Part shown: in pieces, positions 8,645 through 25,900 of the stretch | Numbering within the stretch: position 1 is the first letter of the stretch | Layout of the letters: each line of letters starts with the position of its first letter | NCBI GenBank assembly: GCA_963705375.1 | Contig: OY970071.1 | Span: 900,001 to 932,000 of the forward strand | Origin: Candidatus Saccharimonadota bacterium | Lineage (GTDB): Archaea; Micrarchaeota; Micrarchaeia; Micrarchaeales; Micrarchaeaceae | Direction: 5' to 3' | DNA length: 32,000 nucleotides | Program-made: the position numbers and the translations under genes | The notes under the pieces: model-generated | Database searches by the model: none | What the model was told of the DNA's origin: nothing | Seen by the model: only the letters and a program-made list of their open reading frames with translations

Positions 8645-8648
8645 TCTT

Positions 8649-8735
8649 GCGGGGGTGGCAGAGCTAGGCCAAATGCGCAGGATTGAGGTTCCTGTGTCTT
8701 TAGAGACTACGTGAGTTCAAATCTCACCCCCCGCA
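8649..8735 (+). tRNA. tRNA-Leu(GAG), class II with long variable arm, CCA not encoded
   Basis: Hand-folded cloverleaf. The acceptor is GCGGGGG/CCCCCGC with discriminator A. The D stem is GCA/TGC with a 13-nt loop. The anticodon stem is CAGGA/TCCTG with loop TTGAGGT, anticodon GAG at 8685-8687. The variable arm has a GTCT/AGAC stem. The T arm is GTGAG-TTCAAAT-CTCAC. Confidence 0.92.
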
Positions 8736-8745
8736 TATGTTTGCT
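8728..8745. repeat. Left copy of 18-bp direct repeat (target-site duplication / attL), overlapping the last 8 nt of tRNA-Leu
   Basis: cccccgcatatgtttgct at 8728-8745 is identical to 23605-23622. The first five C could instead belong to the right TIR as the complement of the left-terminal GGGGG, which would leave a 13-bp TSD gcatatgtttgct. Confidence 0.9.
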
Positions 8746-8856
8746 GGGGGTTATATTAAACGCTCCATTTCACCCACTTTTGGGCGGTTATCCGTTCCAT
8801 TTCACCCACTTTTGCCGATTATCCTTTCCATTTCAATCAGCTAGACAGGACGAGGG
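8746..8856. repeat. Left terminal inverted repeat (~111 bp) with three subterminal TCCATTTCA units
   Basis: The left end gggggTTATATTAAAcgCTCCATTTCA ... TTTCAATCaGCTAGACAGGACGAGGG aligns with the reverse complement of 23529-23609. TCCATTTCA starts at 8764, 8796 and 8827, a period of 31-32 nt. Confidence 0.88.
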
Positions 8857-8905
8857 AAATATCTGGGTCAAGAGAGGTTTATATGCGGAGTTGAAAAGCC
8901 TGTGA

Positions 8906-9574
8906 CTATCTTCTCCTCTTTGCATTGTAACCTACAATTGCGTTATCAATAAGTTTGGCAACAGATGGTTGGAACTGTTCCGTCTCAAAATGGCTTTTAC
9001 CAAGTTTTAACCGCTGGCTGATTTCTACAAACATCTTAAACAGCTCAGCAAAAACCGTCTCTTCATTTTTAGGCGTCAAGTGCTTTTTAAAGAATGGTAA
9101 AGTATACTCTCTATCTATCGGGACAACTAGTTCAGGAAGGATAAAATGCAAAGTCTTGGAAGTGCCTACTATCTTTGAATCAGTTTTCATTATCTTTAAT
9201 TTGTGAAATATTGTTTGGAGAACTTTTTGAGTTTGATTCATCTGGTCCGGTTGCAATCTTTCTAAGGCTAGTCCATCCAAATTTAGTAGTTCACTTCTGC
9301 AACTATGGATACTCTCCTTGAAAGAGTCAAAATCTTGCATTTTTGCTCCGCGTTCACCCAGCCTGTGCATTCCCCACGAAGCCAGAGTCGCATAGGCGTA
9401 CTCATAGAAGTCTGGGTCATCTAGCACCTGCCTTAAAGATTTCCCATTATGACAACCAATTACTTTTGAATAGAAGTGCGTACTTGGCCCACTGAAATTT
9501 TTTATGCCTTGCTTTGCAAAATAATCAACGTTCTTGATAAGGTCAGCAATCCGTTCACCAACAACATCCCTCAT
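8906..9574 (-). CDS. Hypothetical protein (222 aa), casposon left-arm cargo
   Basis: Clean ORF, divergently transcribed from the wHTH gene. No motif could be assigned. Confidence 0.6.
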   Translation of the reverse strand: MRDVVGERIADLIKNVDYFAKQGIKNFSGPSTHFYSKVIGCHNGKSLRQVLDDPDFYEYAYATLASWGMHRLGERGAKMQDFDSFKESIHSCRSELLNLDGLALERLQPDQMNQTQKVLQTIFHKLKIMKTDSKIVGTSKTLHFILPELVVPIDREYTLPFFKKHLTPKNEETVFAELFKMFVEISQRLKLGKSHFETEQFQPSVAKLIDNAIVGYNAKRRR

Positions 9575-9671
9575 AGAGTGAATTTCGTGCTAATCTATTT
9601 AAGTGTATCTGAGTAAACCTTGAGTTTACTTTTAGATAACTAGAATATACGATTTTTCACATAAGTTTACC

Positions 9672-9935
9672 ATGGAAGATAAGAGGCTCGAACTTGTCCA
9701 CTTGGTAATGGAGCCGTACGTTTTAGATATGCTTCACGCCCTGGATAAACCGAAGAGATTCAGCGATCTCATTGCATATGTCAAAAACCGGAAGACTCTT
9801 TCGATAAAGTTGTCTAGGTTGCTCAAACATGAGCTTATCGAACATTTTCCACTGAAGGTTGAGAAGGGATATGCGAATTCCTACATAATCTCGAAGAAAG
9901 GAAGGAAACTTCTCAAAGGGCTTGAGAAAATTTAG
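9672..9935 (+). CDS. Small winged-helix (ArsR/HxlR-like) DNA-binding protein
   Basis: 87 aa. The pattern VLDMLHAL...KRFSDLIAYV...TLSIKLSRLLKHELIE...Y.IS.KGRKLL matches a wHTH topology. Confidence 0.65.
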   Translation: MEDKRLELVHLVMEPYVLDMLHALDKPKRFSDLIAYVKNRKTLSIKLSRLLKHELIEHFPLKVEKGYANSYIISKKGRKLLKGLEKI

Positions 9936-9951
9936 CAGTAGTATTCAAAGC

Positions 9952-10125
9952 TTAATCCCAAGGCAGTCTACACTTGTACAATATGCCTCCACAGCGAATA
10001 CAGATATGCTTGTGATTCTTGGGACCCACCGTAGTGATACAGTAATGAAAGTCGGTCTCTTTGCAAGTGCACTTCTTATCTGGTATCAAATTTTTATTTT
10101 TTATATACTCACCTTTTATCATCAT
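9952..10125 (-). CDS. Small zinc-ribbon protein (57 aa), translationally coupled to casposon PolB
   Basis: CxC ... CxxC cysteine pairs (KKCTCKE, ICIRCGG). Its ATG at 10125-10123 overlaps the PolB TGA stop (ATGA). The longer 78-aa form in the ORF track would overlap polB by 67 nt. Confidence 0.5.
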   Translation of the reverse strand: MMIKGEYIKNKNLIPDKKCTCKETDFHYCITTVGPKNHKHICIRCGGILYKCRLPWD

Positions 10126-12776
10126 AGTAAACCCAGCAGCTTTAGCGTCTTCCTCTTGAATTTTGGCACCTTGCCATCCTTCAGGCATCTTTTTATGTAA
10201 CTATACTGCCATCTTTTCATTCCTAGCTGTTTTGCCTCTTCTTTTGTAAGTGTTTCTATCCTTTTCATTAACTTCTGTTCGAGATTTTTGTCATAGTAGA
10301 CATAATCATCACTTTTTACACCAACAACTTCCGCTTCTTCCAAATTATTAGACTCCTTACCACAGTAATTGATATTACTAATATTGATGTGCCTAGGACT
10401 GAGAATCCCAATTCCTCCCTGTTGTTTCTTCTCTTCGTGATTTACGTACTCAAAAAACAACTCATCGGTTGGTTTCCAATAAGCTTCCGTGTGTTTATTG
10501 TAGAGTTTACCATTTTTGTAGTCAATAAATGGCTGATATTTTACTGTACTATAATCTTTTGTAAAAGGCAACATTGGTATAATTGGTTCTCTTGTTATGC
10601 TGTCAAGACGATAACTTACCCCTAGGGTTATAAAATTTCGTGGTTTGATCTGGTGCTTAAGATCTTTGGCTTTATTGATTCTATTAAAACGTTTCATTAA
10701 AAATGGAGATGTAATAGCTAATTGTCCTGCTACAATGAAATTGTTATAATTAAACTCTATGTAATTGTCTTTTACAAGGCCACTATTGTATTTTATAATA
10801 TCCATCCAAAACTTCTCTTCCCATCCCTCCGGCATAGACTTTATCCCTCCCAATCCATGACTTGAATGTTTGAATATTGTAATCTTTCCATTTTCTTGCT
10901 TGTATAAACAATATCTCTTAGAACTTATTCCTAGAAATAGAACATTATCTAGTAGTTCTCCGTTGTTGCCTCTTTCTACTTTGAACATTTCAACATCTTT
11001 ATTGTAAGGATTAAGTGGTTTAAAAAATGCCTGAACAGGTTTCACTGCAGAAGGACTTATGAAGATCGCATCACAATCTTCATAAAAATACGACCAGCTG
11101 TTCCTCTCAACAAATACCTCCGTCATCGTTAAGACGAGCCTAGCGCCTGATGTTAGTAGAGTTGACACTAGGGGGTTAAACATCTTGCCATAATGCTCTG
11201 TTTTCTTTACCTTTGCTTTAAAACTTTCGAGCCCATAAACAGTCACCTCAGCGGATTCTAATTTTGTTGAGGTCTCTATTCCCACCCCGTACAATGAGTT
11301 AGCCATTATCTTACAGACATGCTGCTCGGTTCTCAGTTGCTCGTTATTGGGATCTAATTTCAGTTTTTCCTTTACTTCTAGTCTATGCTCTATTAGTAAT
11401 TTTATAAAATCAGTAGTTCTTGGATCTACACAAAGGCCAAAAAGTTTGGTTGGTTTTAGCGTTGGTTGTAATCCTACAGGTAAGAATCTATATGCCTTAA
11501 TTATCTTGGGTGCTTTTCCAGTTTTGATCTTAGATGCAATTATGTCTGCATAGGTGTACCATAGTTGTTTACCGCTTAAGTAAGCCATCCCTATGTTATG
11601 TGTGATCTTTCCTCCAAAACGGCTTCTTATTGGGAAATAATCTTCATTTAACTCTACTAATCCAATTCCTTGTAAATTAGACCAGACATTTTTGTTTGTT
11701 AAATCTTCAAGCTTTATATCATCTACAAAGTTCTGAAACTTGTCATCTTCTTTGACATCAATGTGATCGGCGATGATATATGACCACAATTGTTGTGAAA
11801 TTAGCTGGCTTGGATACATCGATAAATAGTCAATATAAGTGGCGTTTACGGTTTGCTTGCGCACATGAACAGCGACCTTAGCCCCATAAAAACTACTTAA
11901 TACGAAACCCAACATTGACCTTGAAAACTCTTTATTTTGATCCAAAAACGAATGTATGCCCATAGAGGTGCAGTATGCCTTTAGCAGACTCGCGGTTGAC
12001 GACAACTTATGCGGATAAAGTGGAATATCGTAATCATTTATTTTTCCCAGTAGTGCCTTGAATAACAGGTAGGAAATGTTTACGTCGTTAATATTGTACG
12101 ATATCAGCTTGGAATTCACCACACCATAAGTCTCAATCTTCGATTTAAGAGGAACTCCAAAATGTCGGCACGCCGATTCGAGCGAATGAGACGCATTTGT
12201 AAGCACCCATGTCAACGTACGTAAATCGCAAAAACTTCCCGAATAATTATTTCTTGTTTTTCTATTTTTGGAATAAGGAGATACAAAATTGATAAAACTT
12301 CGCTTAGAGTCCAAACTCTTCAAAAAAATTCTTGGTTTATATTTGTCATTTGAAATTTTCAGTGAGAAGGCCTCTCTATCATGTTTTTTTGAAGTGCCCC
12401 AACTTAAGCAGACCCTACAAAGATCGAATCCAATGTTAAATCCGCATATCAGGGCACGTCTATAAAAGCCCCAAGTTATCAGTTTATCAGAAAATTCGTC
12501 CCTGTTCATTAGCGGTATCTTATGTTCGATGGCATATGATTTCAATATGGCATATTCGTTTGGTTTTAAGTCACCGTGGAATAATCCTTTCTCAATAAGA
12601 ACATCATTATTCCAAACTCCATAATATCCTATCAACAAGTTTTGGTACTCGTCTACCGAACTCTCAACATCAAAGCAAAACACAGTATTGTTATCGTAAT
12701 AATCCTCTCTATTATACTGATTATGTGTCTTGCCGTCATCGACGTAACATCTCAGTATGGCATTCGCATTTTCCAT
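10122..12776 (-). CDS. polB: Casposon family-B DNA polymerase (protein-primed-type PolB by context)
   Basis: 884 aa. Exo I is FCFDVES and Exo II is YNINDV. Motif A is YIDYLSMYPS, motif B is KIMANSLYGV, motif C is the variant YEDCDAIF, and KxY is SKRYCLY. It is highly divergent from the host PolB at 1415-3862. Confidence 0.9.
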   Translation of the reverse strand: MENANAILRCYVDDGKTHNQYNREDYYDNNTVFCFDVESSVDEYQNLLIGYYGVWNNDVLIEKGLFHGDLKPNEYAILKSYAIEHKIPLMNRDEFSDKLITWGFYRRALICGFNIGFDLCRVCLSWGTSKKHDREAFSLKISNDKYKPRIFLKSLDSKRSFINFVSPYSKNRKTRNNYSGSFCDLRTLTWVLTNASHSLESACRHFGVPLKSKIETYGVVNSKLISYNINDVNISYLLFKALLGKINDYDIPLYPHKLSSTASLLKAYCTSMGIHSFLDQNKEFSRSMLGFVLSSFYGAKVAVHVRKQTVNATYIDYLSMYPSQLISQQLWSYIIADHIDVKEDDKFQNFVDDIKLEDLTNKNVWSNLQGIGLVELNEDYFPIRSRFGGKITHNIGMAYLSGKQLWYTYADIIASKIKTGKAPKIIKAYRFLPVGLQPTLKPTKLFGLCVDPRTTDFIKLLIEHRLEVKEKLKLDPNNEQLRTEQHVCKIMANSLYGVGIETSTKLESAEVTVYGLESFKAKVKKTEHYGKMFNPLVSTLLTSGARLVLTMTEVFVERNSWSYFYEDCDAIFISPSAVKPVQAFFKPLNPYNKDVEMFKVERGNNGELLDNVLFLGISSKRYCLYKQENGKITIFKHSSHGLGGIKSMPEGWEEKFWMDIIKYNSGLVKDNYIEFNYNNFIVAGQLAITSPFLMKRFNRINKAKDLKHQIKPRNFITLGVSYRLDSITREPIIPMLPFTKDYSTVKYQPFIDYKNGKLYNKHTEAYWKPTDELFFEYVNHEEKKQQGGIGILSPRHINISNINYCGKESNNLEEAEVVGVKSDDYVYYDKNLEQKLMKRIETLTKEEAKQLGMKRWQYSYIKRCLKDGKVPKFKRKTLKLLGLL

Positions 12777-13054
12777 TACATCTCCTGATAACGTTTAATT
12801 GGGTTTGAGAGGGAGTCTGCAAGCAGACGATAGTCCCTAATCCCTGTCTTGAAGTGTTTCTCAATGAAAATCTCCTGTATGCCTTGAAGGATGAAGGAAC
12901 TCTTCAGATTTTCAGGGTTGTTTTTCGAGTTCCAGGCATCATTCCAAAGCAGCTGGCGTATGCTAATGTGGATATGGCAATCAACACAGAGGGTGACTGT
13001 GATCTCGGAGTTGCACCTGCCCGCGATGTGGTGATTCTCTAGTCGATGAAGCAT
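12776..13054 (-). CDS. HNH endonuclease
   Basis: 92 aa with ENHHIAGR ... TLCVDCH (HNH core with a Cys/His zinc site). Its TAA stop overlaps the PolB ATG by 1 nt (TAATG). Confidence 0.8.
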   Translation of the reverse strand: MLHRLENHHIAGRCNSEITVTLCVDCHIHISIRQLLWNDAWNSKNNPENLKSSFILQGIQEIFIEKHFKTGIRDYRLLADSLSNPIKRYQEM

Positions 13055-13209
13055 CTCTTATCCCTCTTTTTTGGATTTTTAGCGAAAATTCGCTTTACGT
13101 CCGCTATTGCCTTATTCACAATGTCTCTATCCAGCTGTTCTTTCTCAGCAGCCAGGAAGAATCTCTGGGTTACTTCAGTGAGCAGTTCCTCGTTCTTCTT
13201 GGATAGCAT
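13039..13209 (-). CDS. Small hypothetical protein (56 aa)
   Basis: The internal Met of track ORF 13039..13347 begins 5 nt after the stop of the upstream 198-aa gene. The charged helical sequence MLSKKNEELLTEVTQRFF... looks coding, whereas the 5' part of the longer ORF overlaps the neighbouring gene out of frame. Confidence 0.45.
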   Translation of the reverse strand: MLSKKNEELLTEVTQRFFLAAEKEQLDRDIVNKAIADVKRIFAKNPKKRDKRCFID

Positions 13210-13213
13210 GCTC

Positions 13214-13810
13214 TCACGTAGTCTCGTAGACAGAGTAAAATTCTGGTTGCTCGATACGTTCATACATGGCGACCAGCACTTTTGGATTGGTTTCAAAAGC
13301 ATGGAAATCGCCACTGCTATCAACCACCCCCTGCCCATTGTAGCCATTAAGCGGCCCTAGCTCGCCATTTTGAAGGTAGGCCCTTACCGCGTCATGGTAC
13401 TGTGCGAGCCTTGTAGCCTCCCTAGAATCGCTTAATTCAACAAACACGTCCTTGCCTAGCTCGTTAGTACGCATGTTCCTAAGCAGGTGATCGTGCTTCT
13501 TGGGCTTAATTCTATTATTTTTCTTATATAATGCGATAGAAATATGCTTGCGAACCGTACGTGGATCAATTTTTGAATTTTTGCAACAAAGTGTGTAAGA
13601 GTCACCGGCCCTCATCATCGCCAATACCCGATATGACTTGTCTCTCTGAACTTTCTGGGCTATTGACAGCTCGTGCAAGTGTTTAACGTAGAGCCTGAGT
13701 TTGCGTCTCCTGTGCTTAGCCCTAACTTTGGGCTTAAATCTTCTCAAGCGGGATTGGGGGCCTGAGCCCCCTCTCCTGACCTTATATGTCAAGGTCGCCA
13801 TCATCTTCAC
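13214..13810 (-). CDS. Hypothetical protein (198 aa) with a highly basic N-terminus, possible HTH
   Basis: Long ORF inside the minus-strand operon. Its Arg/Lys-rich N-terminal 45 aa suggest nucleic-acid binding. No family recognised. Confidence 0.6.
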   Translation of the reverse strand: MKMMATLTYKVRRGGSGPQSRLRRFKPKVRAKHRRRKLRLYVKHLHELSIAQKVQRDKSYRVLAMMRAGDSYTLCCKNSKIDPRTVRKHISIALYKKNNRIKPKKHDHLLRNMRTNELGKDVFVELSDSREATRLAQYHDAVRAYLQNGELGPLNGYNGQGVVDSSGDFHAFETNPKVLVAMYERIEQPEFYSVYETT

Positions 13811-14207
13811 TTTCCTTCGCGTACTTCCCTATGTTTTGGGATAGTACGGTCAGCACCGCCTCATTCTCACTGCAGCCTAGCTTCTCGGCCATCTTGGAGA
13901 TTTGCCCCTTCAGAGCGTCAGGTACGCGAACATATCCTGCCGTTGCCGTGCTCTTGGTCGTGTTATCCTTCCAGTCCATCACTGAGACTAGAAGAGGCAC
14001 GGGGGACCACAGAACTAATTGATACTTTAAGAGCACCTTCAACCTTCTGTATGCCTGCTCCTTTTCTTGTTCTGAGGCGTCCCAGGAACCATCTAAAAGC
14101 TGCAGATAGCTCTGGATCATGTCTGTTACCTGCTGACTGCCTTGACGTTGGCCAGTTTGGTCTGGCTTTACCCCGGATTGCTCCGGTTCTGTCTTTATTG
14201 GTTGCAT
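13782..14207 (-). CDS. Hypothetical protein (141 aa) with a C-terminal ribbon-helix-helix-like segment
   Basis: The C-terminal GYVRVPDALKGQISKMAEKLGCSENEAVLTVLSQNI resembles an RHH (CopG/Arc) beta-alpha-alpha unit. GGTGA lies 6 nt upstream of the ATG. It is the first gene of the operon that ends with polB and the zinc ribbon. Confidence 0.55.
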   Translation of the reverse strand: MQPIKTEPEQSGVKPDQTGQRQGSQQVTDMIQSYLQLLDGSWDASEQEKEQAYRRLKVLLKYQLVLWSPVPLLVSVMDWKDNTTKSTATAGYVRVPDALKGQISKMAEKLGCSENEAVLTVLSQNIGKYAKESEDDGDLDI

Positions 14208-14300
14208 TTTTTCACCGATATACTTATTAGAACCTACTAATTACCGTCGAAGTCCTCTCAGCGAAGCGATTCGTCGATATCACTACGCTGAAAGAAGTGG

Positions 14301-14310
14301 GTATTTAAAA
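14301..14310 (+). promoter_or_regulatory. Candidate TATA box for the 373-aa/591-aa gene pair
   Basis: gtatttaaaa lies about 22-31 nt upstream of the ATG at 14332, which would give a leaderless or near-leaderless archaeal transcript. Confidence 0.3.
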
Positions 14311-14331
14311 CTCTGGAAACAATACATATTC

Positions 14332-15453
14332 ATGAAAAAATACCTGCCTGACTGGCGAAGGAAGCGAGTAGAAGAAAATAAAATGAGGATACTGACTTTG
14401 TTTTTCGAACAATCTGAAGAAATTGGCACAGACGGGACAATGAAACTTAAACCACTATCAATGAAATGGAGCGACATTAAAAAATTAGCGCTGAAAGAAG
14501 GCATAAAAAGCGATTCTGGTCTTAGCAAAATTCTGTTTGCTTTAAAGAATGAGGGTAAACTTTTACATGATGAGCACCTGCAATGGAAACCTACGATTAT
14601 GGCTATAGAAGAGGCACAAAAGACCATTTGGTATATAGTCAAAACACTACAAGAGTTAAAAGCCAACGAAGCCTATTATTTGCATGGTGGAGATCCTTTT
14701 GGATCATTTAAATTCGGTTTCAGTACCGATAATATAATCGATTTTAGGTTGGATAATGCCGTTGCCAAAAACGCTGAGCTAATGTCCCCGAAAATCAACG
14801 TCATAACCGCCATGACTAAAAGCTTGCAGGATTATGCTTTTGACTTACTGATAGACAATATTAAAAATAATACCCTAAATGTCAACGATTTTAAGAGTGG
14901 CAAGACTATACAAGCCATAGAGATAGATTGGGATAAATTCAGGGAGGAATTTAAACGAATCCAACGCTTTATTGAGGACATCAATTCCCCAGACAACACT
15001 CAAGATGATGTACTTTCTGATCCCCTACTGAACTTGGATAGCCAAAGACGGGACATATTAAACAACTTATGGTTTCTTGTCTACTTCTCATCTAAGATTG
15101 GAGATGCCAAATTTAAAAGAAAACTAACATTTTTCTTGAATATATTCACACAAAGTGAAGATTTCTATGAAATCACTAAAGTAAGTTCCAAATCACTCGA
15201 AACGCTTATACGCTATCTAGGAACGAACAAGGATCCTTTGAAAGACCAAGCGCTGGTAAAAGACCTAATAGTACTGGATTCCACTGGATTTGGATATACG
15301 GACATTTCGGGTAGATACAGCATAGCGATGATGTTATCCAAGTTTGGTGACTCTTCATTTATGGAAAAGGTTGAGGAATTCGATAACAGACTAAGAGAAT
15401 TAAAAATCAAAAGGTTAAATGAGAAAATAGTAGCCTCAAAAACAGAGTCATAG
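14332..15453 (+). CDS. Hypothetical protein (373 aa), N-terminal wHTH-like segment, no catalytic motif seen
   Basis: Clean AT-rich ORF. The N-terminal RILTLFFEQ...LSKILFALKNEGKLL resembles a winged helix. A co-oriented ORF follows 38 nt downstream. Confidence 0.65.
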   Translation: MKKYLPDWRRKRVEENKMRILTLFFEQSEEIGTDGTMKLKPLSMKWSDIKKLALKEGIKSDSGLSKILFALKNEGKLLHDEHLQWKPTIMAIEEAQKTIWYIVKTLQELKANEAYYLHGGDPFGSFKFGFSTDNIIDFRLDNAVAKNAELMSPKINVITAMTKSLQDYAFDLLIDNIKNNTLNVNDFKSGKTIQAIEIDWDKFREEFKRIQRFIEDINSPDNTQDDVLSDPLLNLDSQRRDILNNLWFLVYFSSKIGDAKFKRKLTFFLNIFTQSEDFYEITKVSSKSLETLIRYLGTNKDPLKDQALVKDLIVLDSTGFGYTDISGRYSIAMMLSKFGDSSFMEKVEEFDNRLRELKIKRLNEKIVASKTES

Positions 15454-15491
15454 TTGAGTAACTCAGGGAAAACATAAAAATTGGTGATAGC

Positions 15492-17267
15492 GTGGAAGAT
15501 AAAAAGGAAGCAGCTGGTTGGCCATCTTCATATGACTTTTTCTATTATGATTCGAAGGTATTTGAAAAGGCCCTTTCCATTAGGAAAAAGGTATTGGAAA
15601 ATGCGAATTCAAACTTGATTTACGGATATATTTACTTGTTAGAGCTGCTGATTAGCGCAATAGCCCAACACGTAGAAGACCTTCCAAACAATATGCAAAA
15701 ATTTGAGATTATTCATTGGGGTAGGTTCGATTTAGGCAGCCGAGAAATGCAAGAAATCGCAAAGAATGATGAATATTTCAGATTGGTTCTTGTCTTGAAT
15801 AGAAGACGTAGAAACTTGTCTAACTTGCTGCATGCTCTGCTGGGAGCCGACAATCCAGATATAAGGAAGGGATTGGAAGTCTCTCTAGAAGCACTTGATG
15901 TTTTAATTAAGGAAATAAATTCCAAAGTGATAGAATTTTATAATCCCAAGAGAATAGGAGAAGTAGACGAAGTTAACGAGAGACTGATGATACTTAACTG
16001 GTTTCTCAACACCGTTTTATACGAAGGTCCTAGACCTTTCTTTAGCACAATGACTGATTCTATTGCTTTTAGTTACAGACCGCTCCCTCAGTATCTTGAC
16101 GGCTTTAAGTTTTGTTTGGAAGATATCTTAATTTGGTTAACTAGTAGTAAGAGTAATGAAACAATAGAAAGTAATCTCAAAGAATTTCAAACTTGGAAAG
16201 ATTCACATAGTTTCTGGGTAACTATGGTCGATGCATTCACTCGTGGCATTGAACTTAAACGACTTTTTGAGATAACGATTCCAGAAGAGCAATCCAAGAA
16301 TCTGATTGATGTTAAAAAAATAACTGATAAACATCAGCTAAATGTGCTTTTCAGAGGCAGAGGAATAAAGGCAATAACTGTTTTTGAAAATATTTTGGAA
16401 AGCGATAATGATGTGTTAGAAAGATTATTCACAGATGCATTGCAAGGAAATCTGCTTTTGAATGAACCCAAAGCTGAAATAATCGAGTTTAAGGAGTTGA
16501 AAAACTACAAAGAAGGATGGGGATGGGAGTATCACTATACTTATGCTTTATATGTTCCAATGCACGGATTTATTGGTGACGCCTCGAGTTGGCTGATCTT
16601 CCCTAGCTTGACAGTTGAAACGGACCAAGAGGACGATTATTTCAGAACAAACTTGCAAGACATTGTAAAAGATCATGAGGATGAGATACAATTTAGTGAA
16701 TATGAGATCAAAACAGGACTAATTGAGAGTTACATAGCTGAAAAGGATCGTGCAACAATTCGAAAATTGTGGGTTGAAAGAAGATTAGATTCTAGCAGGG
16801 GGTTGCTCGCTGAATTTTTAGCTTATTTCTATCTCTGGGATGGGTATGGCGCCAAACTCATTGAATTTCATAAAGAAGTGGACAGAACTGAAATTGATGT
16901 TGTTGGAGAAGATGACACTTCTCGTTATATCATACAGGCTAAAAATTCGCTCACCCTCAGAAAGGAAAAATTAGTAAAAGAGATAGAACAAATCACAAAA
17001 CAATTTGCAATAGTTGAGAAAAAGTATACTGTTTCAGATAAGTCTACAAGAAAAATACTTTTTGTGGTGGATTGGGCTTGGGATGCGGAAGATCCTGGTG
17101 AGGATCGTGACGAAAATGTTATAGAGGCATATGGAGTTGCTCAGCAAATGCTAGGAAAAGACAATATTCAGCTTGTTATCTACGCTGATATAAAGAATAT
17201 CGTGAGCCGTAGGCATAAGGATTTCGTTGAAAAATCAAACAGTGTATTTGATTTAATCGATAAATAG
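15492..17267 (+). CDS. Hypothetical protein (591 aa) with a C-terminal PD-(D/E)XK-like nuclease core
   Basis: GTG start. Residues ~436-500 (nt ~16797-16992) read LLAEFLAYF...EIDVVGEDDTSRYIIQAKNS, giving E441 ... D469 ... Q482-x-K484, the pattern of restriction-endonuclease-fold nucleases. The ~430-aa N-terminal region is unassigned. Confidence 0.6.
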   Translation: MEDKKEAAGWPSSYDFFYYDSKVFEKALSIRKKVLENANSNLIYGYIYLLELLISAIAQHVEDLPNNMQKFEIIHWGRFDLGSREMQEIAKNDEYFRLVLVLNRRRRNLSNLLHALLGADNPDIRKGLEVSLEALDVLIKEINSKVIEFYNPKRIGEVDEVNERLMILNWFLNTVLYEGPRPFFSTMTDSIAFSYRPLPQYLDGFKFCLEDILIWLTSSKSNETIESNLKEFQTWKDSHSFWVTMVDAFTRGIELKRLFEITIPEEQSKNLIDVKKITDKHQLNVLFRGRGIKAITVFENILESDNDVLERLFTDALQGNLLLNEPKAEIIEFKELKNYKEGWGWEYHYTYALYVPMHGFIGDASSWLIFPSLTVETDQEDDYFRTNLQDIVKDHEDEIQFSEYEIKTGLIESYIAEKDRATIRKLWVERRLDSSRGLLAEFLAYFYLWDGYGAKLIEFHKEVDRTEIDVVGEDDTSRYIIQAKNSLTLRKEKLVKEIEQITKQFAIVEKKYTVSDKSTRKILFVVDWAWDAEDPGEDRDENVIEAYGVAQQMLGKDNIQLVIYADIKNIVSRRHKDFVEKSNSVFDLIDK

Positions 17268-17315
17268 TAGCTTAAGGCAAGTTAACATAAAACTCTGATA
17301 AACTTCTTTTGTGCT

Positions 17316-19589
17316 TCATAATTCCTTTACCTTACTAAGTACTTCATCGACATTATCATTAGTGACCAAGAAGAAGTGTAATTTTCCATTACCCAAGTGT
17401 TCCCATTCTTTTGCCACTTGCACTTTATAGGTAGTGTCTTCGTTAGTGACTAGATGCTCCCCTTTCCACTCTAATACCAAGATGTTACCCTTTTCTGTAA
17501 CCGCAACGAAATCCGGATAAAATTTATTTGGTTTCCAACCCTGCAAGTAAAATGGATCTTTCTTCTCTCTGTTTCTTATCCAAAATCGGATATTAGATAG
17601 TGTATCTAAATCAAGTCTATTTATAAAGGTGTTTTCTTCTTTATTTAATTTGTCAATCTTCTTGTAATAATTTTTATTAAATTCTTGTGGCAACTCCTCT
17701 TCCAGCATTATCTTATCAGAGAACTTTTCAAATGACTTTGTTTTGATTTTGCCTTCTTTCACATATTTATCGAAATTATTTTTGGCATGGTTTACTAGTA
17801 TCTTATTTATTGCACTGTCTAGTTTGTCAAGAAGTAGATAACGATTAACAGACAAATCCTGAAGAGTGTACCCTTTTATATTATTTAAGGCCTTCTCCAA
17901 GAATGCTACCCTATCCTCTTTGTCAAGCATCGTAAATCTTAACCGTTTATCTAGCCATTGTATCAACTCGCTCTTAGAACAATTTTTATCCCGGTAAGTT
18001 ATTTTTAGCACTTTTTGTGCTCCTCTTATCCATTTGTCTCCTTCTTTTATATCGATGATTGCTCTTCCATCGCTGTCATAATGTACTTTAAAATCAATTT
18101 TGGCATCTTGCTTCGCCAATTCAAAATTTTCGCCTATTAATTCCTCAAAAGATAGTTCTTCATCTTCGTAAGCCATCATTGGAGGAGCAAAGTCTTCACT
18201 AACTCTTCTTTCAACCTCAAATTGATATTGCTCTTGTCTATCTGCTGCATTAATTAGATCAAGTCTACTATAGCCGTTGCTTTCTAATCCTGATATAATC
18301 TCTGTAGCGGCCTCATTAAAATTCTTAGCTGAGGCGAATATATAGCTCCGATTTAGATCTTCATTTTCTTTTCTCGAAGCAGAAGGCAATCTCATAATTC
18401 GTCCTATAATTTGTTCAACAGCAATTCTAGAGCCGATATTCGCAACAGAGATTAGGATATAAGCATAGGAACAATCCCATCCTTCAGCCAAAGCATTAAC
18501 TGTAATAATATACCTTATTTTGCATTTATTACCAAACAAATCAATATTTTCTAGGTCATTCTGTTTTGAGGTTTTAATTGCTATTTCTTCCTCTTTGACC
18601 ATACCATTGCATTCTTTTAGAAGAAATTCCTTGATCTTACCTACTGTCACTTTCTTTTCGCTTTCCTTCTCTTGTTCTGCCTGTAATAATGTGATTGGCC
18701 TTATGCGTTCCCCCTTCTCTTTTTTTGTTAATTTCTCTAATTCCTCCCGTCTTAATACGCCTTGCTTAATTGCATTTTGCCATTGCGTATGACTTTCTAA
18801 TACTAAAGGCAGCTTTACCATGTTTTCTTCTTTCAATTCAGAAGAACATATTCTCATTAAAACATTACTCTCTGATCTAGGCGTAGCAGTATACTCTATT
18901 ACAAAACTTGGATTTAGGCCTTTCAAAAACTCAATTGATAACAAAGTTTTAGCTCTATGACCTTCATCTATAACGATCAAGGGGTTGCTAAATCTAATCA
19001 CATTAGCCAGAGATTTTATTACTCCGGACTCGTCTTTTTCTAATATATTAGAATCTTCTATATTCTCAAAATGACCTAATAATTCGCCATTTTCTTTATA
19101 AACTTTATATTTATTCTGTAAGGCCTTTTCTTTTCTAAATGCATCTAGACTGGAAACTATAAGGCAAAGATTATTTTCTACGTCATCTTTTTTTATCCTT
19201 AAAGCTTCCTCGTTTGAAAATATTTTTATATTATTATCAAAAGACTCATCGAGTACTTTTCTGTGCATGTCATTCCTATCTTTGAACTTTTTTAATGTTT
19301 GACTTTTAATTGCCTCAGAAGGAACAAACCACATCACTATTCCTTTCCCCATTTTTTCTTTTAGAAAGGAGTCCATAATCTGGCATATAGAATGGCAGCC
19401 GACTAAGGTTTTCCCACCACCTGTTGGTATTTTTATACAAATAGAAGGAACATCGTCGCCAAAGAAATCGCTTTTATACGGTTGATTTGTTATATACATA
19501 TAAGCATACGCTGGTTTTTGTTTTTCTAACTCTTTAAGGAACTCATTAATTTTATCTAAGGCCTTTTGTTGATAAATTTTGAGCTTCAT
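17316..19589 (-). CDS. res: Type III restriction enzyme, Res subunit (SF2 helicase plus C-terminal PD-ExK nuclease)
   Basis: 757 aa. Motif I is PTGGGKT, motif II is VIDEGHR and motif III is TATP. The C-terminal YPDFVAV...VLEWKG is a PD...ExK nuclease motif. Its ATG abuts the mod stop (TAAATG). Confidence 0.88.
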   Translation of the reverse strand: MKLKIYQQKALDKINEFLKELEKQKPAYAYMYITNQPYKSDFFGDDVPSICIKIPTGGGKTLVGCHSICQIMDSFLKEKMGKGIVMWFVPSEAIKSQTLKKFKDRNDMHRKVLDESFDNNIKIFSNEEALRIKKDDVENNLCLIVSSLDAFRKEKALQNKYKVYKENGELLGHFENIEDSNILEKDESGVIKSLANVIRFSNPLIVIDEGHRAKTLLSIEFLKGLNPSFVIEYTATPRSESNVLMRICSSELKEENMVKLPLVLESHTQWQNAIKQGVLRREELEKLTKKEKGERIRPITLLQAEQEKESEKKVTVGKIKEFLLKECNGMVKEEEIAIKTSKQNDLENIDLFGNKCKIRYIITVNALAEGWDCSYAYILISVANIGSRIAVEQIIGRIMRLPSASRKENEDLNRSYIFASAKNFNEAATEIISGLESNGYSRLDLINAADRQEQYQFEVERRVSEDFAPPMMAYEDEELSFEELIGENFELAKQDAKIDFKVHYDSDGRAIIDIKEGDKWIRGAQKVLKITYRDKNCSKSELIQWLDKRLRFTMLDKEDRVAFLEKALNNIKGYTLQDLSVNRYLLLDKLDSAINKILVNHAKNNFDKYVKEGKIKTKSFEKFSDKIMLEEELPQEFNKNYYKKIDKLNKEENTFINRLDLDTLSNIRFWIRNREKKDPFYLQGWKPNKFYPDFVAVTEKGNILVLEWKGEHLVTNEDTTYKVQVAKEWEHLGNGKLHFFLVTNDNVDEVLSKVKEL

Positions 19590-21146
19590 TTAATACACCT
19601 TTACCTCATAAGGAATCTGTTTGAATTGAATTTTATACTTCTCTAATGTCTTCTCGTCGATTAGACATTTATCAGCGTAAATTACCCTCTTTTTACTGTC
19701 TTTTTGAAGTTTCTTTAAGAATTCCTTATTCAGTACATTCTTACCTCTTTCTTTGAAGATAAGATAATATTCGGTTTCATTATATTCACCAATGAAATTT
19801 CCTGACATCGTTCCTTTATCAATATTAGTATTAGTCTCGGTAAAGTAAATGTATGTCGCCAACTGATCAAATGAGCATTCTTCATCAATTTGACCGTATT
19901 CATTGAATAGCGGTTTATCTAATTCACAATATTCAAAACCATCTTTATAATCGTATTTTTTAATAGCTCTTTTAATTCTCTCTGCAGTAATATCTTTTGC
20001 AATGCCATCTTCAAGCTCAACTAAAATAAATTTCCTATGCCCACCATCTGCTTTGTTTAAATCTAATACAGCATTTCCAGTTGTGCCTGAACCGGCAAAA
20101 GAATCCAAAACAAGGTCTTCTTTATTTGAAGTGAGTTTAATTATTCTTTTTAATAATTCAACGGGTTTGGGTGTTGGGAAAGGATTAGCTTCCTCTGGAA
20201 ATAATACTTTTATTTCTCTTTTTGCATCTTGTGTGTGCCCAACCTCTTTATATTCCCAAAGAGTTAAAGGTGTAATTCCAGGACTTACTTCACTCAAAAA
20301 GAGTTTTGGACCCCACATGCTTGCTCCTTCCTTTCCAAACCATATTCGGTTATCTTTCTTCAGTTCCTCAAAACGTTTTTCACTATACAACCAACTTCTT
20401 CCTTTTGGTGGAAGTAATTTTCTTCCACTAGGAGTAACTATCTCATAAATATTTTTTTCGATTGCCGGACCTACAGAAGGATTGCCTAACTTCCATAGAC
20501 CGCGAGGATCGTTATCAGGATTTTTATAGTCTTTTAGCTGTTTTTCTGTCCTCTCAAGTTTATTTATTGAAAATGAATCTAAGTTCTTCGTATATGCTAC
20601 AATATAATCGTGATTCTGGGAAAAATATTTATTCAAACTTACAGGTGCATAAGCTCTTTGCCAGATTATAGTCGCTAGGAAATTCTTTTCTCCAAATATT
20701 TCATCCATGATTAAACGTAAATTATGCACTTCATTATCATCTATTGACACTAGAATCGCTCCGTCTTCTTTTAAAAGTTGGTACAGCAGTTTCAATCGTG
20801 GATACATCATGCACAGCCATTTGTCATGCCTACATAAATCTTCAGATTCATTTCCTACCACTTTTCCTAGCCATTTTTTAATTTTAGGTGAATTTACTTT
20901 ATCATTATAAACCCACCCATCATTTCCAGTGTTATATGGAGGATCTATATAGATGCATTTTACTTTTCCTTGATAATACGGCATCAGTGCTTTTAGTCCC
21001 TCTAAATTATCTCCATGAATAATTAGGTTCTGAGAATTTTCATCAACAGAAAGCGATTTTACTTTTTTTAACAGTCTAAAAGGAACCTCTTTGTCATGAT
21101 TTACAACGGCGTCTTTACCAATCCAGTCTAAAATAGGCATAAACAT
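19590..21146 (-). CDS. mod: Type III restriction-modification DNA methyltransferase, Mod subunit (beta-class N6A/N4C MTase)
   Basis: Motif IV IDPPYN lies near the N-terminus and motif I DSFAGSGTT about 280 aa later, the beta-class order. The N-terminal PILDWIGKD is typical. The start is ambiguous among 21152 TTG, 21149 GTG, and 21146 or 21140 ATG. Confidence 0.88.
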   Translation of the reverse strand: MFMPILDWIGKDAVVNHDKEVPFRLLKKVKSLSVDENSQNLIIHGDNLEGLKALMPYYQGKVKCIYIDPPYNTGNDGWVYNDKVNSPKIKKWLGKVVGNESEDLCRHDKWLCMMYPRLKLLYQLLKEDGAILVSIDDNEVHNLRLIMDEIFGEKNFLATIIWQRAYAPVSLNKYFSQNHDYIVAYTKNLDSFSINKLERTEKQLKDYKNPDNDPRGLWKLGNPSVGPAIEKNIYEIVTPSGRKLLPPKGRSWLYSEKRFEELKKDNRIWFGKEGASMWGPKLFLSEVSPGITPLTLWEYKEVGHTQDAKREIKVLFPEEANPFPTPKPVELLKRIIKLTSNKEDLVLDSFAGSGTTGNAVLDLNKADGGHRKFILVELEDGIAKDITAERIKRAIKKYDYKDGFEYCELDKPLFNEYGQIDEECSFDQLATYIYFTETNTNIDKGTMSGNFIGEYNETEYYLIFKERGKNVLNKEFLKKLQKDSKKRVIYADKCLIDEKTLEKYKIQFKQIPYEVKVY

Positions 21147-21162
21147 CACCAATTATATATTC

Positions 21163-22128
21163 TTATTCAAGTTGCCTTATGTATTTCGTTAAAACTTTTG
21201 AGAATATGCTCATTTTTTCAATTCCCCACTTTATAAGTTCTTCTTTTTCCGTTTCGCTAAGTTTTGTTATAGGACCACTTGTTTGTTTAGAAATCTCAAT
21301 ACGTGAGGCGCGTGCATCCGGTAGTTCCTGAAAATCTAGTCCAAATCCAAGTTCTTTTTCAATCACGTCATGCATTTGTTCCAGTTCTTTAAGGATTCTT
21401 TTATTTTCTTCTCTATCATGTACATCAATATAGAGTTCAATTGCAAAATGCCACCCATTAGCCATCCTAAATAGCCAAGAATAAGAGAATCCAGATTTTC
21501 CTGCACCGAATGAAAGCCAGTGTTGAGGCGACGCCTTTACCTTATTCCAAGAAGGATTCTGCTGCTTGTATTTATCAGCTAACTGTGTGAAGAATTCTAA
21601 TCTGACTTTCTGGAGTCTTTGCTCAGCCTCACTTAGCACTTCTTTAGATACCTCTTTCTGATACTCATTCGGTTTTACAACAACTACTAATTCAGGGGCG
21701 GGCAACGAATCCCCGATCTTCTTGACTTCTATTTTTATTCCAAACAGACTCGGCCCATCTTGCTTTATATTGTTATTGAGGTAATCTAGCGTCGCGATAT
21801 GTTCTTCTCTAAAGGTTTCTGCAATCCATATCCCTATTTTTGCCCCCTTACCTGACAGATAAGTTAAGAGTTTTCCTAAATGATCATGGTTTGTCTCACC
21901 ATATTGATTTTCTATAACAACCATGTCGTCCGTGCCTGCAATCTTCCCTACAAGATCTGCCGAATAATTTCCGACGTTAACTTCATTGCTTACATCTTCT
22001 ATATCTTCCCCGATTAATGCAGATATTTTAGAGATATTCTCTTTTACCCACGGAGTAAAATCTCTTTCTTCATTTGGCCAAACAGACTTTATGTCAATAT
22101 GTTCAATTTTTCCTAACTCCTTTGCCAT
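21163..22128 (-). CDS. PD-(D/E)XK-like nuclease N-domain fused to a DUF4268-like C-domain (by recollection of the family)
   Basis: The N-terminal ...YSADLVGKIAGTDDMVVIENQYGETNHDHLGKLLTYLSG is the signature I associate with DUF4268-family proteins found in R-M loci. The ATG at 22128 is preferred over the TTG at 22161. It lies immediately upstream of mod-res on the same strand. Confidence 0.6.
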   Translation of the reverse strand: MAKELGKIEHIDIKSVWPNEERDFTPWVKENISKISALIGEDIEDVSNEVNVGNYSADLVGKIAGTDDMVVIENQYGETNHDHLGKLLTYLSGKGAKIGIWIAETFREEHIATLDYLNNNIKQDGPSLFGIKIEVKKIGDSLPAPELVVVVKPNEYQKEVSKEVLSEAEQRLQKVRLEFFTQLADKYKQQNPSWNKVKASPQHWLSFGAGKSGFSYSWLFRMANGWHFAIELYIDVHDREENKRILKELEQMHDVIEKELGFGLDFQELPDARASRIEISKQTSGPITKLSETEKEELIKWGIEKMSIFSKVLTKYIRQLE

Positions 22129-22278
22129 ATACTTCCCCTTTCCTACAGTATCCACTAACAATAATTGAACATTAACTCTTTATAACTTCACCCAGAAATA
22201 GTCGGCCATTTGTATAGCGTTGCCATAGCGCATTTTGTGTACTTCTTTTATGCAAGTATAACTTATTATACCTTTATA

Positions 22279-23457
22279 TCAGCCTAACTGACTAATTTTT
22301 GATTTTACCTTAGGATATATTCTAATCCTTTTACCTTCTCTTATATTTCGTTGTATGTACCAAACTGTGTTGCGTGCGAGGCCAAGTCTTTTCCTCTTTT
22401 CAGGGGTCATATTTAGTATCATATCTCGTAGTGATTCAGTATCCTGCCTCTTTAGCTTTACAAGCGGTATGTCGAACTCCACGTCAGCGCCAGTCAATAT
22501 GCTCTTCGCGAAACTGGCTATATTTTCATATAATATGTTGCGGTAGCTATAATTCTTGCCTCTGAAGTTTGCGGTTGAATTGAAGTTAGTTTTCACCTTC
22601 TCGATCAGCATTCTGACCCCGGACTCCCTTACTCTGATATTGTAGTTTTCAGTTACCAAAAAGTCTGTTTTATTGATCTTTCTTTCTTCTAGAAGCTGAA
22701 TGACACTTAGATCTATGAGCCATCTGAAGGTTTCCTGCAAATCGTAAACCAAACTAGACCGGCTTGCCTTTAGCTCATGCACGAAGCTGATAGAGTTGTC
22801 AAGGCCCAAGGCACCAATGTCCCTCCGAAGCTCGGACTCCAATAGAGAATAACCAAGGTTGAGAAGTGCATTGCACTCGGAACTTGCGTTCATATTCCAT
22901 GATTGGCGTCTGCTATTCCTTCCGGCAAAGTTGAATTCTGGATAGAGCTTATCAAAAATCAGCTTTAAGTTAGCCCAATAAGCTATGGCCTCGTTCCCTT
23001 CCGCCGTGAGTAGTGAACCATAGTTGTTCAAATGCCCTAAATCCAACTTGTCAGCCCTTATCTCAGGATAATAATTAGACAGTTCATTAAGCAGGTTTCT
23101 GGACTGCCTTACCTTTTCCTTAATGATGCTCATCCCTATAGTGGCTCGCCTTTTACTGTCAGTATAAGCCTCATACTGTTTAAGCCTCAGCTTGCCCGAA
23201 ACAGGCTCATTGGGCAATGTTACGCTTAGAAGGTTGCCATTCCAGTTCAGTAATGTTAAGGCAATATCGTGCTTCATAAGCCACCTCATCGCCTCAAAAG
23301 TTATGCTTCCGGTATAACTGTCCAATACTATACCGTCATAAAGGATCTGATGGGGATTGAACTCTAGCCTGGTATTTTCCAGCTTATTGACAATAACGAG
23401 CTTTCGCTTATCTACGCTTATGAAGTTACCGAATCCGCTAATCAATAATGGGTTCAT
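22279..23457 (-). CDS. cas1: Cas1 family integrase (casposase) with C-terminal HTH
   Basis: Cas1 signatures are present: AEGNEAIAYW (Glu), NALLNLGYSLLE, and FVHELKASRSSLVYDLQETFRW (His, with Asp at +12 and Glu at +15). The basic C-terminal HTH is RKRLGLARNTVWYIQRNI. The ATG at 23457 is preceded by aGGTGA; the track start at 23487 would lie inside the putative TATA box. Confidence 0.9.
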   Translation of the reverse strand: MNPLLISGFGNFISVDKRKLVIVNKLENTRLEFNPHQILYDGIVLDSYTGSITFEAMRWLMKHDIALTLLNWNGNLLSVTLPNEPVSGKLRLKQYEAYTDSKRRATIGMSIIKEKVRQSRNLLNELSNYYPEIRADKLDLGHLNNYGSLLTAEGNEAIAYWANLKLIFDKLYPEFNFAGRNSRRQSWNMNASSECNALLNLGYSLLESELRRDIGALGLDNSISFVHELKASRSSLVYDLQETFRWLIDLSVIQLLEERKINKTDFLVTENYNIRVRESGVRMLIEKVKTNFNSTANFRGKNYSYRNILYENIASFAKSILTGADVEFDIPLVKLKRQDTESLRDMILNMTPEKRKRLGLARNTVWYIQRNIREGKRIRIYPKVKSKISQLG

Positions 23458-23488
23458 GTTTTTCACCTGGTAGAATATCGACGTCAAA

Positions 23489-23500
23489 GTATATAAAAAG
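23489..23500 (-). promoter_or_regulatory. Candidate TATA box for cas1
   Basis: The minus strand reads ctttttatatac, 32-43 nt upstream of the cas1 ATG at 23457 and just inside the right TIR. Confidence 0.35.
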
Positions 23501-23528
23501 GTCCAAACAACGAGGATAGTCTAGTTTA

Positions 23529-23604
23529 CCCTCGTCCTGTCTAGCCGATTGAAATCGATCGGTTAATCAGGCAAAATCGATTGAAATGGAGGCTTTAATA
23601 TATA
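23529..23604. repeat. Right terminal inverted repeat (~76 bp, or 81 bp if CCCCC 23605-23609 is included) with two subterminal units
   Basis: The reverse complement reads TATATATTAAAgcCTCCATTTCAATCGATTTTGCC...GATTTCAATCgGCTAGACAGGACGAGGG, matching the left TIR. It is one ~32-bp unit shorter than the left TIR. Confidence 0.88.
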
Positions 23605-23622
23605 CCCCCGCATATGTTTGCT
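23605..23622. repeat. Right copy of the 18-bp direct repeat (TSD / attR)
   Basis: cccccgcatatgtttgct is identical to 8728-8745. Confidence 0.9.
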
Positions 23623-24427: not shown

Positions 24428-24504
24428 ATGCTCGTATTGTTAAAATCTCATCCCAGCATCATAGTATTGCCTTGCTCTGAGGGCTCTTTCTACACTTCGT
24501 TTTG

Positions 24505-25293: not shown

Positions 25294-25354
25294 AGACTAC
25301 TACAAGCAATTCTCTATCTCTTCGATACTGCTTTTTGCATCATTATTTCTGACT

Positions 25355-25864: not shown

Positions 25865-25900
25865 GCTATCCCTTTAGGGTTTCTTAAAATTTCCAGATAT

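Follow-up and report, generated by a model that had tools for sequence, protein, structure and literature searches.

Casposons are transposons that replicate themselves and insert by means of an enzyme of the Cas1 type. Family 2 casposons are characterized by a casposase with a helix-turn-helix (HTH) at its C terminus, a family B DNA polymerase (PolB) whose C-terminal domain is similar, an HNH gene, two HTH proteins (one of them with HEAT repeats) and tRNA targets (PMC4046053, PMC6614799), whereas family 1 elements have a protein-primed PolB, a 347-aa casposase without the HTH, a target-site duplication (TSD) of 13 bp and an ef-2 target (PMC8464041, PMC4046053). The casposase of Aciduliprofundum boonei needs the motif TCAAATC 8 bp upstream of the duplication and a terminal TCCCC-3'; for integration in vitro, 5 terminal nucleotides suffice and one or two extra nucleotides are tolerated (PMC6614799). 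The terminal inverted repeats (TIRs) of the A. boonei element read GGGGATATATATA... and GGGGATATATATACATCCCC... (oligonucleotides in the supplement of PMC6614799), and its target reads ...TCAAATCCGGGCGGC followed directly by CCCA..., with the TSD beginning at the last 4 nt of tRNA-Pro (PMC6614799 supplement). In Methanosarcina mazei, the TSD at tRNA-Leu is 14 bp long (the tRNA's final 4 bp and a further 10 bp) and begins with CGCA (PMC4779613, PMC6977970), and the catalytic residues of the casposase are E162, H232 and E247 (PMC6977970). A further family 2 element, MetArv-C1, carries Sir2 and an insertion sequence (IS) element (PMC4046053). We analyzed a 32,000-nucleotide stretch of contig OY970071.1 (positions 900,001 to 932,000; hereafter the window, in whose own numbering positions are given), which is part of a metagenome-assembled genome. 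Judging from its sequence, the segment from 8746 to 23608 is, with a probability of about 93%, a complete family 2 casposon in a Micrarchaeota chromosome.

A casposon had already been proposed in the first-pass annotation of the window, and this proposal was borne out by a casposase, a PolB, TIRs, a TSD and an empty site in relatives. The flanking gene for RpoD (RNA polymerase subunit D, 8057-8644) had its named relatives in Candidatus Micrarchaeota and Micrarchaeaceae, and the host is placed by sequence as a Micrarchaeota (DPANN) archaeon and not a methanogen. The profile search that had been recommended for the Cas1 homologue gave a match to PF01867 at 1.6e-50. In a search of the PDB, the closest solved structure was the M. 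mazei casposase 6OPM (8.4e-66, 226 bits), compared to 4.9e-23 for the best CRISPR Cas1. Residues 3-386 aligned with 6OPM up to chain residue 409, the C-terminal extension included, and this extension was conserved in an alignment of 22 relatives; it is predicted to be the C-terminal HTH of the family 2 type, in agreement with the earlier description. Residues E153, H227 and E242 aligned with the catalytic residues of the M. mazei enzyme and were invariant in 23 homologues, so that the triad, which had been described as Glu/His/Asp, is intact but is Glu/His/Glu. No CRISPR-like array was present in the window or in the 77 loci (1.16 Mb) that had been retrieved through relatives of Cas1 or PolB, and neither Cas2 nor another cas family was matched among the element open reading frames (ORFs) scanned, flanking ORFs having been partly scanned. 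The match scores and the lack of an array upheld the view that this is a casposase and not a CRISPR-associated Cas1. The protein is of full length (392 aa, compared to 386 to 400 aa in relatives), and a TATA-like box and AGGTGA precede its ATG at 23457.

The perfect 18-bp repeat CCCCCGCATATGTTTGCT was found in exactly two copies, one at 8728-8745 and the other at 23605-23622; the number expected from 100 shuffles was 0. Both copies had been located previously and were confirmed to be identical, and the claim that the first 8 nt of the repeat are the 3' end of tRNA-Leu held with the tRNA at 8649-8735. These tRNA coordinates are those of Rfam and were adopted because that register yields the standard U8 and discriminator A73; the span given by ARAGORN (8648-8736) is 1 base wider on each side. 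The tRNA-Leu gene is kept intact despite the insertion. Both ends could be mapped in eight relatives, which sit at tRNA-Glu, tRNA-Val, tRNA-Ser and tRNA-Pro genes. In 8/8 the TSD was exactly 14 bp and ran from the last 4 nt of the tRNA, TCAAATC lay at -15 to -9, and the element started with GGGG(T/A)TATA... and ended with ...CCCC. Application of this 14-bp register to the window gave CGCATATGTTTGCT as the true TSD, beginning at the last 4 nt of tRNA-Leu, and an element proper of 14,863 bp. The repeat amounts to these 14 bp plus 4 extra because the right TIR terminates in CCCC and the tRNA acceptor stem likewise has CCCC in front of CGCA. A TSD of 18 bp, or of 13 bp if GGGGG pairs with CCCCC, had been put forward in the first-pass annotation; both lengths were rejected, since all eight relatives have 14 bp and the terminal CCCC accounts for the surplus 4 bases. 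Integration at tRNA 3' ends with an overlap of 4 to 7 nt is a feature of family 2, and the window TSD overlaps the last 4 nt of tRNA-Leu.

In four related loci (L078 to L081), the genes for RpoD, tRNA-Leu and a HAD hydrolase were adjacent, with 124 bp between the two protein genes. Alignment of the window flanks with these loci showed that the 15 kb is an insertion directly 3' of the tRNA; related genomes lacking the 15 kb, for which a search had been advised, thus display the empty RpoD-tRNA-Leu-HAD site. No copy of TCACCCCCCGCATATGTTTGCTAC, the empty junction expected in a conspecific genome, turned up in a metagenome scan, and exact look-ups of the window RpoD, Cas1 and PolB in a contig index gave no match; PolB and four other window proteins (three host proteins and the Res subunit described below) were present in a protein collection, on a contig of 1.21 Mb. 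The G+C content was ~48% in the flanks and ~35% within the element. The segment from 13000 to 14300, which holds the 102-, 198- and 141-aa ORFs, had 45 to 48% G+C compared to 31 to 39% in the remainder of the element, and this difference suggests a mosaic origin of the core module.

Inverted arms (8733-8859 and 23526-23621) were detected directly inside, and overlapping, the direct repeats. When 8746-8870 was aligned locally, with gaps allowed, to the reverse complement of 23484-23608, the score was 73, whereas the maximum was 24 in 1,000 shuffles and 30 in 1,000 random internal pairs; the long imperfect inverted termini noted previously are therefore above chance. The first 16 nt of the right TIR were identical, and the remainder nearly so, to the Cas1-side terminus of the closest relative found, a sister element (L001) whose Cas1 is 88% identical and which has the GGGGTATATATTAAAG terminus, the same 31-bp units and the same promoter-like region. 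The likeness between the two TIRs was lower in the window than in relatives such as L017, in which 60 nt are identical. A sequence pattern with two N matched the window and L001 only and had no match in viral contigs; a Cas1 search of the viral contigs likewise gave no match. A scan for sigma-70 promoters and terminators, a model unsuited to archaea, detected no enrichment. The 31-bp units consist of TCCATTTCA or TCGATTTCA followed by ~22 nt and resemble repeated protein-binding sites; the window element has three of them on its left and two on its right, and L001 has three in its Cas1-side terminus (L001 2472-2600).

The polymerase had been described as a divergent member of family B, and this was supported by the predicted fold. 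An AlphaFold (AF2) model had a mean confidence score (pLDDT) of 85.9, and all top Foldseek matches were family B polymerases (E of ~1e-12), a mixture of RNA-primed and protein-primed enzymes that included those of phi29, GA-1 and His1. Sequence searches gave a match to PF00136 that was under the cut-off (2.6e-4), no match to PF03175, no match in the PDB by phmmer and, with a profile, matches to Thermococcus PolB and Pol alpha at ~5e-5; PF03175 was matched by two distant members of the PolB family. Inspection of the translation by eye identified Exo I, II and III as well as motifs A, B and C. The protein is without an N-terminal domain, with Exo I at residues 36-38, and the motif C aspartates D567 and D569 were invariant in the family alignment (A2), in which the consensus is YCDTDA and the window protein has EDCDA. 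The C-terminal tail was 38% identical to that of Cas1 over 45 aa (E of 5e-6). At 884 aa, the protein is close in length to its relatives, mostly 877 to 890 aa. Its assignment to the family 2 type derives from homology to the MetArv-C1 polymerase and from the literature (PMC7544198), not from the sequence or fold searches. The PolB_CDTDS group, to which the A. boonei casposon polymerase belongs, has been called "related to both" PolB clusters, the main one and the protein-primed one (PMC7544198), and the mixed signal seen here (no N-terminal domain and a weak similarity to both types) fits that description. The host replicative PolB (1415-3862, minus strand, 815 aa, PF00136 at 5.8e-58 plus an exonuclease domain) is encoded 5 kb from the casposon.

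Homologues of the window Cas1 with 44 to 88% identity were found in Micrarchaeota, Nanoarchaeota, Thermoplasmatota, Marsarchaeota, Methanocellaceae and many Nitrosopumilaceae. When the window proteins were used in tblastn searches of the related loci, Cas1 was detected in 75, PolB in 42, the 198-aa protein in 38 and the HNH-like protein in 35. Many of the related elements adjoin tRNA genes (Pro, Glu, Val, Ser or Met). PolB and Cas1 are divergent and 1 to 2 kb apart in most relatives; in the window and in L001, Cas1 lies at the element end and reads inward, with cargo directly downstream. The flank of L001, one end of which is present in its contig, differs from that of the window, and CCCATTTGCATTTG, the duplication that it implies, resembles the 3' terminus of a different tRNA.

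One related locus was recognized by its Sir2 gene and IS element as MetArv-C1 of Methanocella arvoryzae MRE50. Cas1 of the window was 51% identical to that of MetArv-C1 over 404 aa, PolB 37% identical over 902 aa (E of 3e-155) and the 198-aa core protein 30% identical, and in both elements the cargo lies beside the core. The cargo itself differs, being Sir2 and the IS element in MetArv-C1, and Cas1 and PolB are divergent and close together there but on the same strand and 9.5 kb apart in the window. A tRNA-Arg gene lies ~5 kb beyond Cas1 in the MetArv-C1 locus. With AciBoo-C1, the family 2 element of A. boonei, the window element shares TCAAATC at -15 to -9, a duplication that starts from the last 4 nt of the tRNA, termini of the form GGGG(A/T)TATATA...CCCC-3', the C-terminal HTH of Cas1 and a methyltransferase among the cargo (PMC6614799, PMC4046053), and the PolB family consensus YCDTDA resembles the CDTDS that gives the A. 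boonei polymerase group its name (PMC7544198). AciBoo-C1 differs in its tRNA-Pro target (tRNA-Leu here) and in having CC rather than CG at positions +1/+2 of the TSD; the window TIRs are longer (83 to 114 bp) and composed of 31-bp units, its host belongs to the DPANN archaea, and its Cas1 is at the element end and reads inward. This likeness was drawn from motifs and published descriptions, not from protein alignment, and by analogy the window element appears closest in mechanism to the A. boonei type. With the family 2 casposons of M. mazei it has in common the tRNA-Leu 3' end, a 14-bp TSD beginning with CGCA, the E/H/E triad and the C-terminal HTH, whereas its kinship with them is more remote (226 bits to 6OPM), the TIRs differ in sequence and length (31 to 59 bp in M. 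mazei) and the host is of another phylum. NitAR1-C1, a family 1 element of Nitrosopumilus, likewise combines Cas1, PolB, TIRs and a TSD and is site specific beside a conserved gene, but its protein-primed PolB, compact 347-aa casposase, 13-bp TSD and ef-2 target are absent from the window element.

Several observations weigh against a complete family 2 casposon. The empty site was seen in a relative whose RpoD is 92% identical and not in the same strain, and the 10 nt after the tRNA differ. The orientation of Cas1 with respect to the PolB module is opposite to that in most relatives, and a rearrangement has thus taken place. Complementarity between the TIR arms is just 72 to 82%, and one arm has a 31-bp unit more than the other; the left end starts with five G in place of the four seen in relatives, and the HNH and HTH core proteins are recognizable just weakly. 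Imperfect and unequal TIR arms (114 versus 83 bp), an extra G at the left end, an inverted Cas1 with 9.5 kb of cargo between it and PolB, and the lack of a conspecific empty site in the metagenome scan would also suit an element that is derived from a casposon but immobile, a fixed defense island in which the transposition machinery is decaying. We regard this explanation as unlikely. The core ORFs are of full length (884 aa for PolB compared to mostly 877 to 890 aa; 392 aa for Cas1 compared to 386 to 400 aa), which agrees with the earlier statement that they are unbroken; the Cas1 triad and the motif C aspartates of PolB are intact; the TSD copies are identical and the G+C content has not drifted to the host value. 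Integration by the A. boonei enzyme needs just 5 terminal nucleotides and tolerates an extra one (PMC6614799), and the five G at the left end thus lie within the tolerated variation. The sister element L001 has the same layout, with Cas1 at the end, and another flank on its one visible end.

The repeat could alternatively be read as attL and attR of a provirus or plasmid integrated by a recombinase of the tyrosine or serine type. A repeat of 18 bp that shares 8 nt with a tRNA has a typical att look, and tRNA 3' ends are classic att sites for integrative elements. Such an origin is nevertheless highly improbable, as no recombinase family was matched among the 16 element ORFs scanned, the inverted repeats directly adjoin the direct ones, related elements at other tRNAs have a fixed 14-bp duplication and not a tRNA-length att, and the CCCC at the TIR end accounts for the extra 4 bp. 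A tyrosine integrase att site was accordingly rejected on the absence of a recombinase from the 16 ORFs and on a 14-bp TSD with 4 coincident bases. It is also very unlikely that the element belongs to family 1, with a protein-primed PolB, or is the founder of a new family. The absence of an N-terminal domain from PolB (Exo I at 36-38), the match of two distant PolB members to PF03175, the phi29, GA-1 and His1 polymerases among the top Foldseek matches and the many relatives in Nitrosopumilus genomes would be in keeping with that assignment, whereas both PolB and Cas1 are clearly homologous to their counterparts in the family 2 element MetArv-C1, Cas1 has 392 aa with the extension compared to 347 aa in the family 1 enzyme (PMC8464041), the target is a tRNA and not ef-2, the TIR and leader motifs match those of family 2 AciBoo-C1, and the PolB_CDTDS group has already been described as related to both PolB clusters (PMC7544198). 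Family 1 was rejected because of the Cas1 extension, the lack of a PF03175 match for the window PolB and the homology to MetArv-C1.

The coordinates of the element and of its genes are collected in Table 1. The 92-aa HNH-like ORF was directly upstream of PolB in every relative locus having it (35 loci), with H8, H9, H27, Q34 and W37 invariant and C26 nearly so. Three of 15 members matched PF01844, with E values of at least 0.018, and profile searches against Pfam and the PDB gave nothing significant; of the HNH nuclease proposed previously, the conserved HH...CxxCH motif stands, and a significant family match is missing. The 198-aa core protein gave weak HTH_28 and GerE matches in some members and nothing significant in profile searches against the PDB and Pfam. 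Homologues of the 87-aa HxlR-like protein that were 47 to 48% identical and annotated as PF01638 were present in the closest relatives (L002 to L006). The HxlR-like ORF (1.2e-3) and the 198-aa protein (weak HTH matches) are the candidates for the two HTH proteins of family 2. The 373-aa protein, for which no family match was detected, occupies the position expected for the HTH-HEAT gene. Its homologue in L011 (26% identity, 382 aligned columns, query residues 6-354) is directly upstream of Cas1, and a partial match at 26% identity (query residues 43-205 only) has the same position in L042.

Table 1. Features of the casposon and its integration target (window coordinates)
Feature	Coordinates	Strand	Basis
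Host tRNA-Leu(GAG) gene, integration target	8649..8735	+	ARAGORN; Rfam RF00005, 52.8 bits, model positions 1-71 of 71
TCAAATC (tRNA T-loop), predicted casposase "leader" recognition motif	8717..8723	+	Sequence; -15 to -9 relative to 14-bp TSD
Left TSD copy	8732..8745	+	Perfect repeat; register from 8 related elements and published M. mazei and A. boonei data
Left TIR, 114 bp	8746..8859	+	Begins GGGGGTTATATTAAA; three 31-bp units (TCCATTTCA...)
222-aa ORF, element specific	8906..9574	-	No significant family match; tblastn of related loci negative
87-aa winged-helix (HxlR-like) DNA-binding protein	9672..9935	+	PF01638 1.2e-3, under cut-off
Family B DNA polymerase, family 2 casposon type, 884 aa	10122..12776	-	AF2, Foldseek, MetArv-C1 homology
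92-aa HNH-like protein	12776..13054	-	HH...CxxCH motif; in 35 loci
102-aa conserved small ORF, core in Micrarchaeota relatives	13039..13347	-	tblastn, 9 loci, 43-64% identity
198-aa conserved casposon core protein, probable HTH, start codon uncertain	13214..13810	-	tblastn, 38 loci including MetArv-C1
141-aa ORF, possibly ribbon-helix-helix (Arc-like), element specific	13782..14207	-	phrog_582 0.009 alone; no match in related loci
373-aa protein	14332..15453	+	No family match; homologue in L011, partial in L042
591-aa cargo protein, rare family, C-terminal PD-(D/E)xK-like nuclease domain	15492..17267	+	AF2, weak Foldseek
Type III restriction enzyme, Res subunit	17316..19589	-	PADLOC REase_III 3.3e-84; PF04851 4.7e-15
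Type III DNA methyltransferase, Mod subunit	19590..21152	-	PADLOC MTase_III 1.8e-188; PF01555 2.5e-46
DUF4268/PDC-S11 candidate defense protein	21163..22161	-	PADLOC PDC-S11 1.5e-97; PF14088 2.3e-29
Casposase, Cas1 homologue with C-terminal HTH-type extension, 392 aa, reading inward from right end	22279..23457	-	PF01867; 6OPM
Right TIR, 83 bp	23526..23608	-	Reverse complement begins GGGGTATATATTAAAG; two 31-bp units
Right TSD copy	23609..23622	+	Perfect repeat; register from related elements

The cargo genes of the window element were not common to the related loci in tblastn searches. L001 carries a type I restriction-modification (R-M) system, Vsr, Dcm and an ATPase, L002 a type I R-M system and a PemK toxin, and L003 an NgoPII-type R-M system with Vsr. 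In the window, the PDC-S11/DUF4268 gene is directly upstream of the type III Mod-Res pair on the same strand (17316-22161), with gaps of 10 bp and 0 bp; this arrangement suggests that the three form a single operon and perhaps that they are functionally linked. The family of the 591-aa protein has 51 representatives among 1.84 billion proteins. An AF2 model (pLDDT of 88.5) gave weak Foldseek matches to the PD-(D/E)xK nucleases EndoMS, Card1 and XisH. In the C-terminal domain, whose signature is E441...D467/D469...Q482xK484, residues T466, D469 and K484 were invariant and E441, D467 and Q482 nearly invariant; the N-terminal part was large and helical and had no fold match. On this model, the protein may be an undescribed defense or nuclease gene product.

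The biochemistry of the A. boonei and M. mazei enzymes suggests how the window element would have inserted. An oligomer of the casposase would read the T-loop motif TCAAATC 8 bp upstream of the cut, and two CCCC-3'-OH ends would attack the two strands 14 bp apart; gap repair would then duplicate the 14 bp and leave the tRNA gene intact. The PolB encoded by the element would copy it, and the 31-bp TIR units are probably protein-binding sites for excision or replication. The region between the core module and Cas1 holds exchangeable defense cargo, here the type III R-M pair, PDC-S11 and the nuclease-like protein, and this cargo would protect the host, the element or both. The full-length core ORFs, the identical TSD copies, a composition that has not drifted and the presence of L001 at another flank argue for a recent insertion, and present activity is plausible.

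A complete example is thereby available in which both ends are present; a related genome supplies the empty site, and the one visible flank of the sister copy is a different one. The locus also constitutes a natural test of the rule established in vitro for A. boonei (T-loop motif at -15 to -9, 14-bp stagger and CCCC-3' end), which holds here at tRNA-Leu and in the eight relatives at tRNA-Glu, tRNA-Val, tRNA-Ser and tRNA-Pro. It is evidence that casposon family 2 extends to DPANN archaea with small genomes, and members of this branch repeatedly carry R-M and other defense genes: the cargo of four related elements includes R-M systems of types I, II and III, Vsr, a toxin, PDC-S11 and the rare nuclease. 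Tn7-like elements and pipolins likewise carry defense genes. A literature search of incomplete coverage found no description of casposons in Micrarchaeota or other DPANN archaea. We put forward, tentatively and as a possibility short of even odds, that this is the first described DPANN casposon and that it represents a large branch within family 2, as yet uncatalogued (members in Micrarchaeota, Nanoarchaeota, Thermoplasmatota, Methanocellaceae and many Nitrosopumilaceae), which moves between tRNA genes by means of TCAAATC and shuttles defense systems beside Cas1. The host range and the recurrent defense cargo are modest novelties in an element class that is already well described; current understanding is not overturned, and the locus can serve comparative studies, with its casposase as a candidate mesophilic enzyme for biochemistry.

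Additional insertions were suggested at some of the related sites. In two Micrarchaeota loci, L034 (~18807-18834, in tRNA-forward orientation) and L059 (~14614-14640), the right TSD was followed directly by a second GGGGTTATATATAA terminus, and these extra termini are interpreted as tandem casposons or solo TIRs, as in Methanosarcina. In L010, where tRNA-Pro is located at 13865-13937 on the minus strand, a second copy of the tRNA 3' end lies ~12.4 kb away and resembles the att-type repeat of some other element integrated at the site that the casposon occupies. In the window itself, ~1.45 kb (24428-25900) separates the HAD gene from a gene for a mevalonate pathway kinase and contains a 263-aa ORF (24502-25293) and a 169-aa ORF, neither with a family match. 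The HAD and kinase genes are adjacent in L080, and an IS200-type Y1 transposase is found at that spot in L078 and L079; the interval is, by this comparison, a second small variable spot beside the casposon site.

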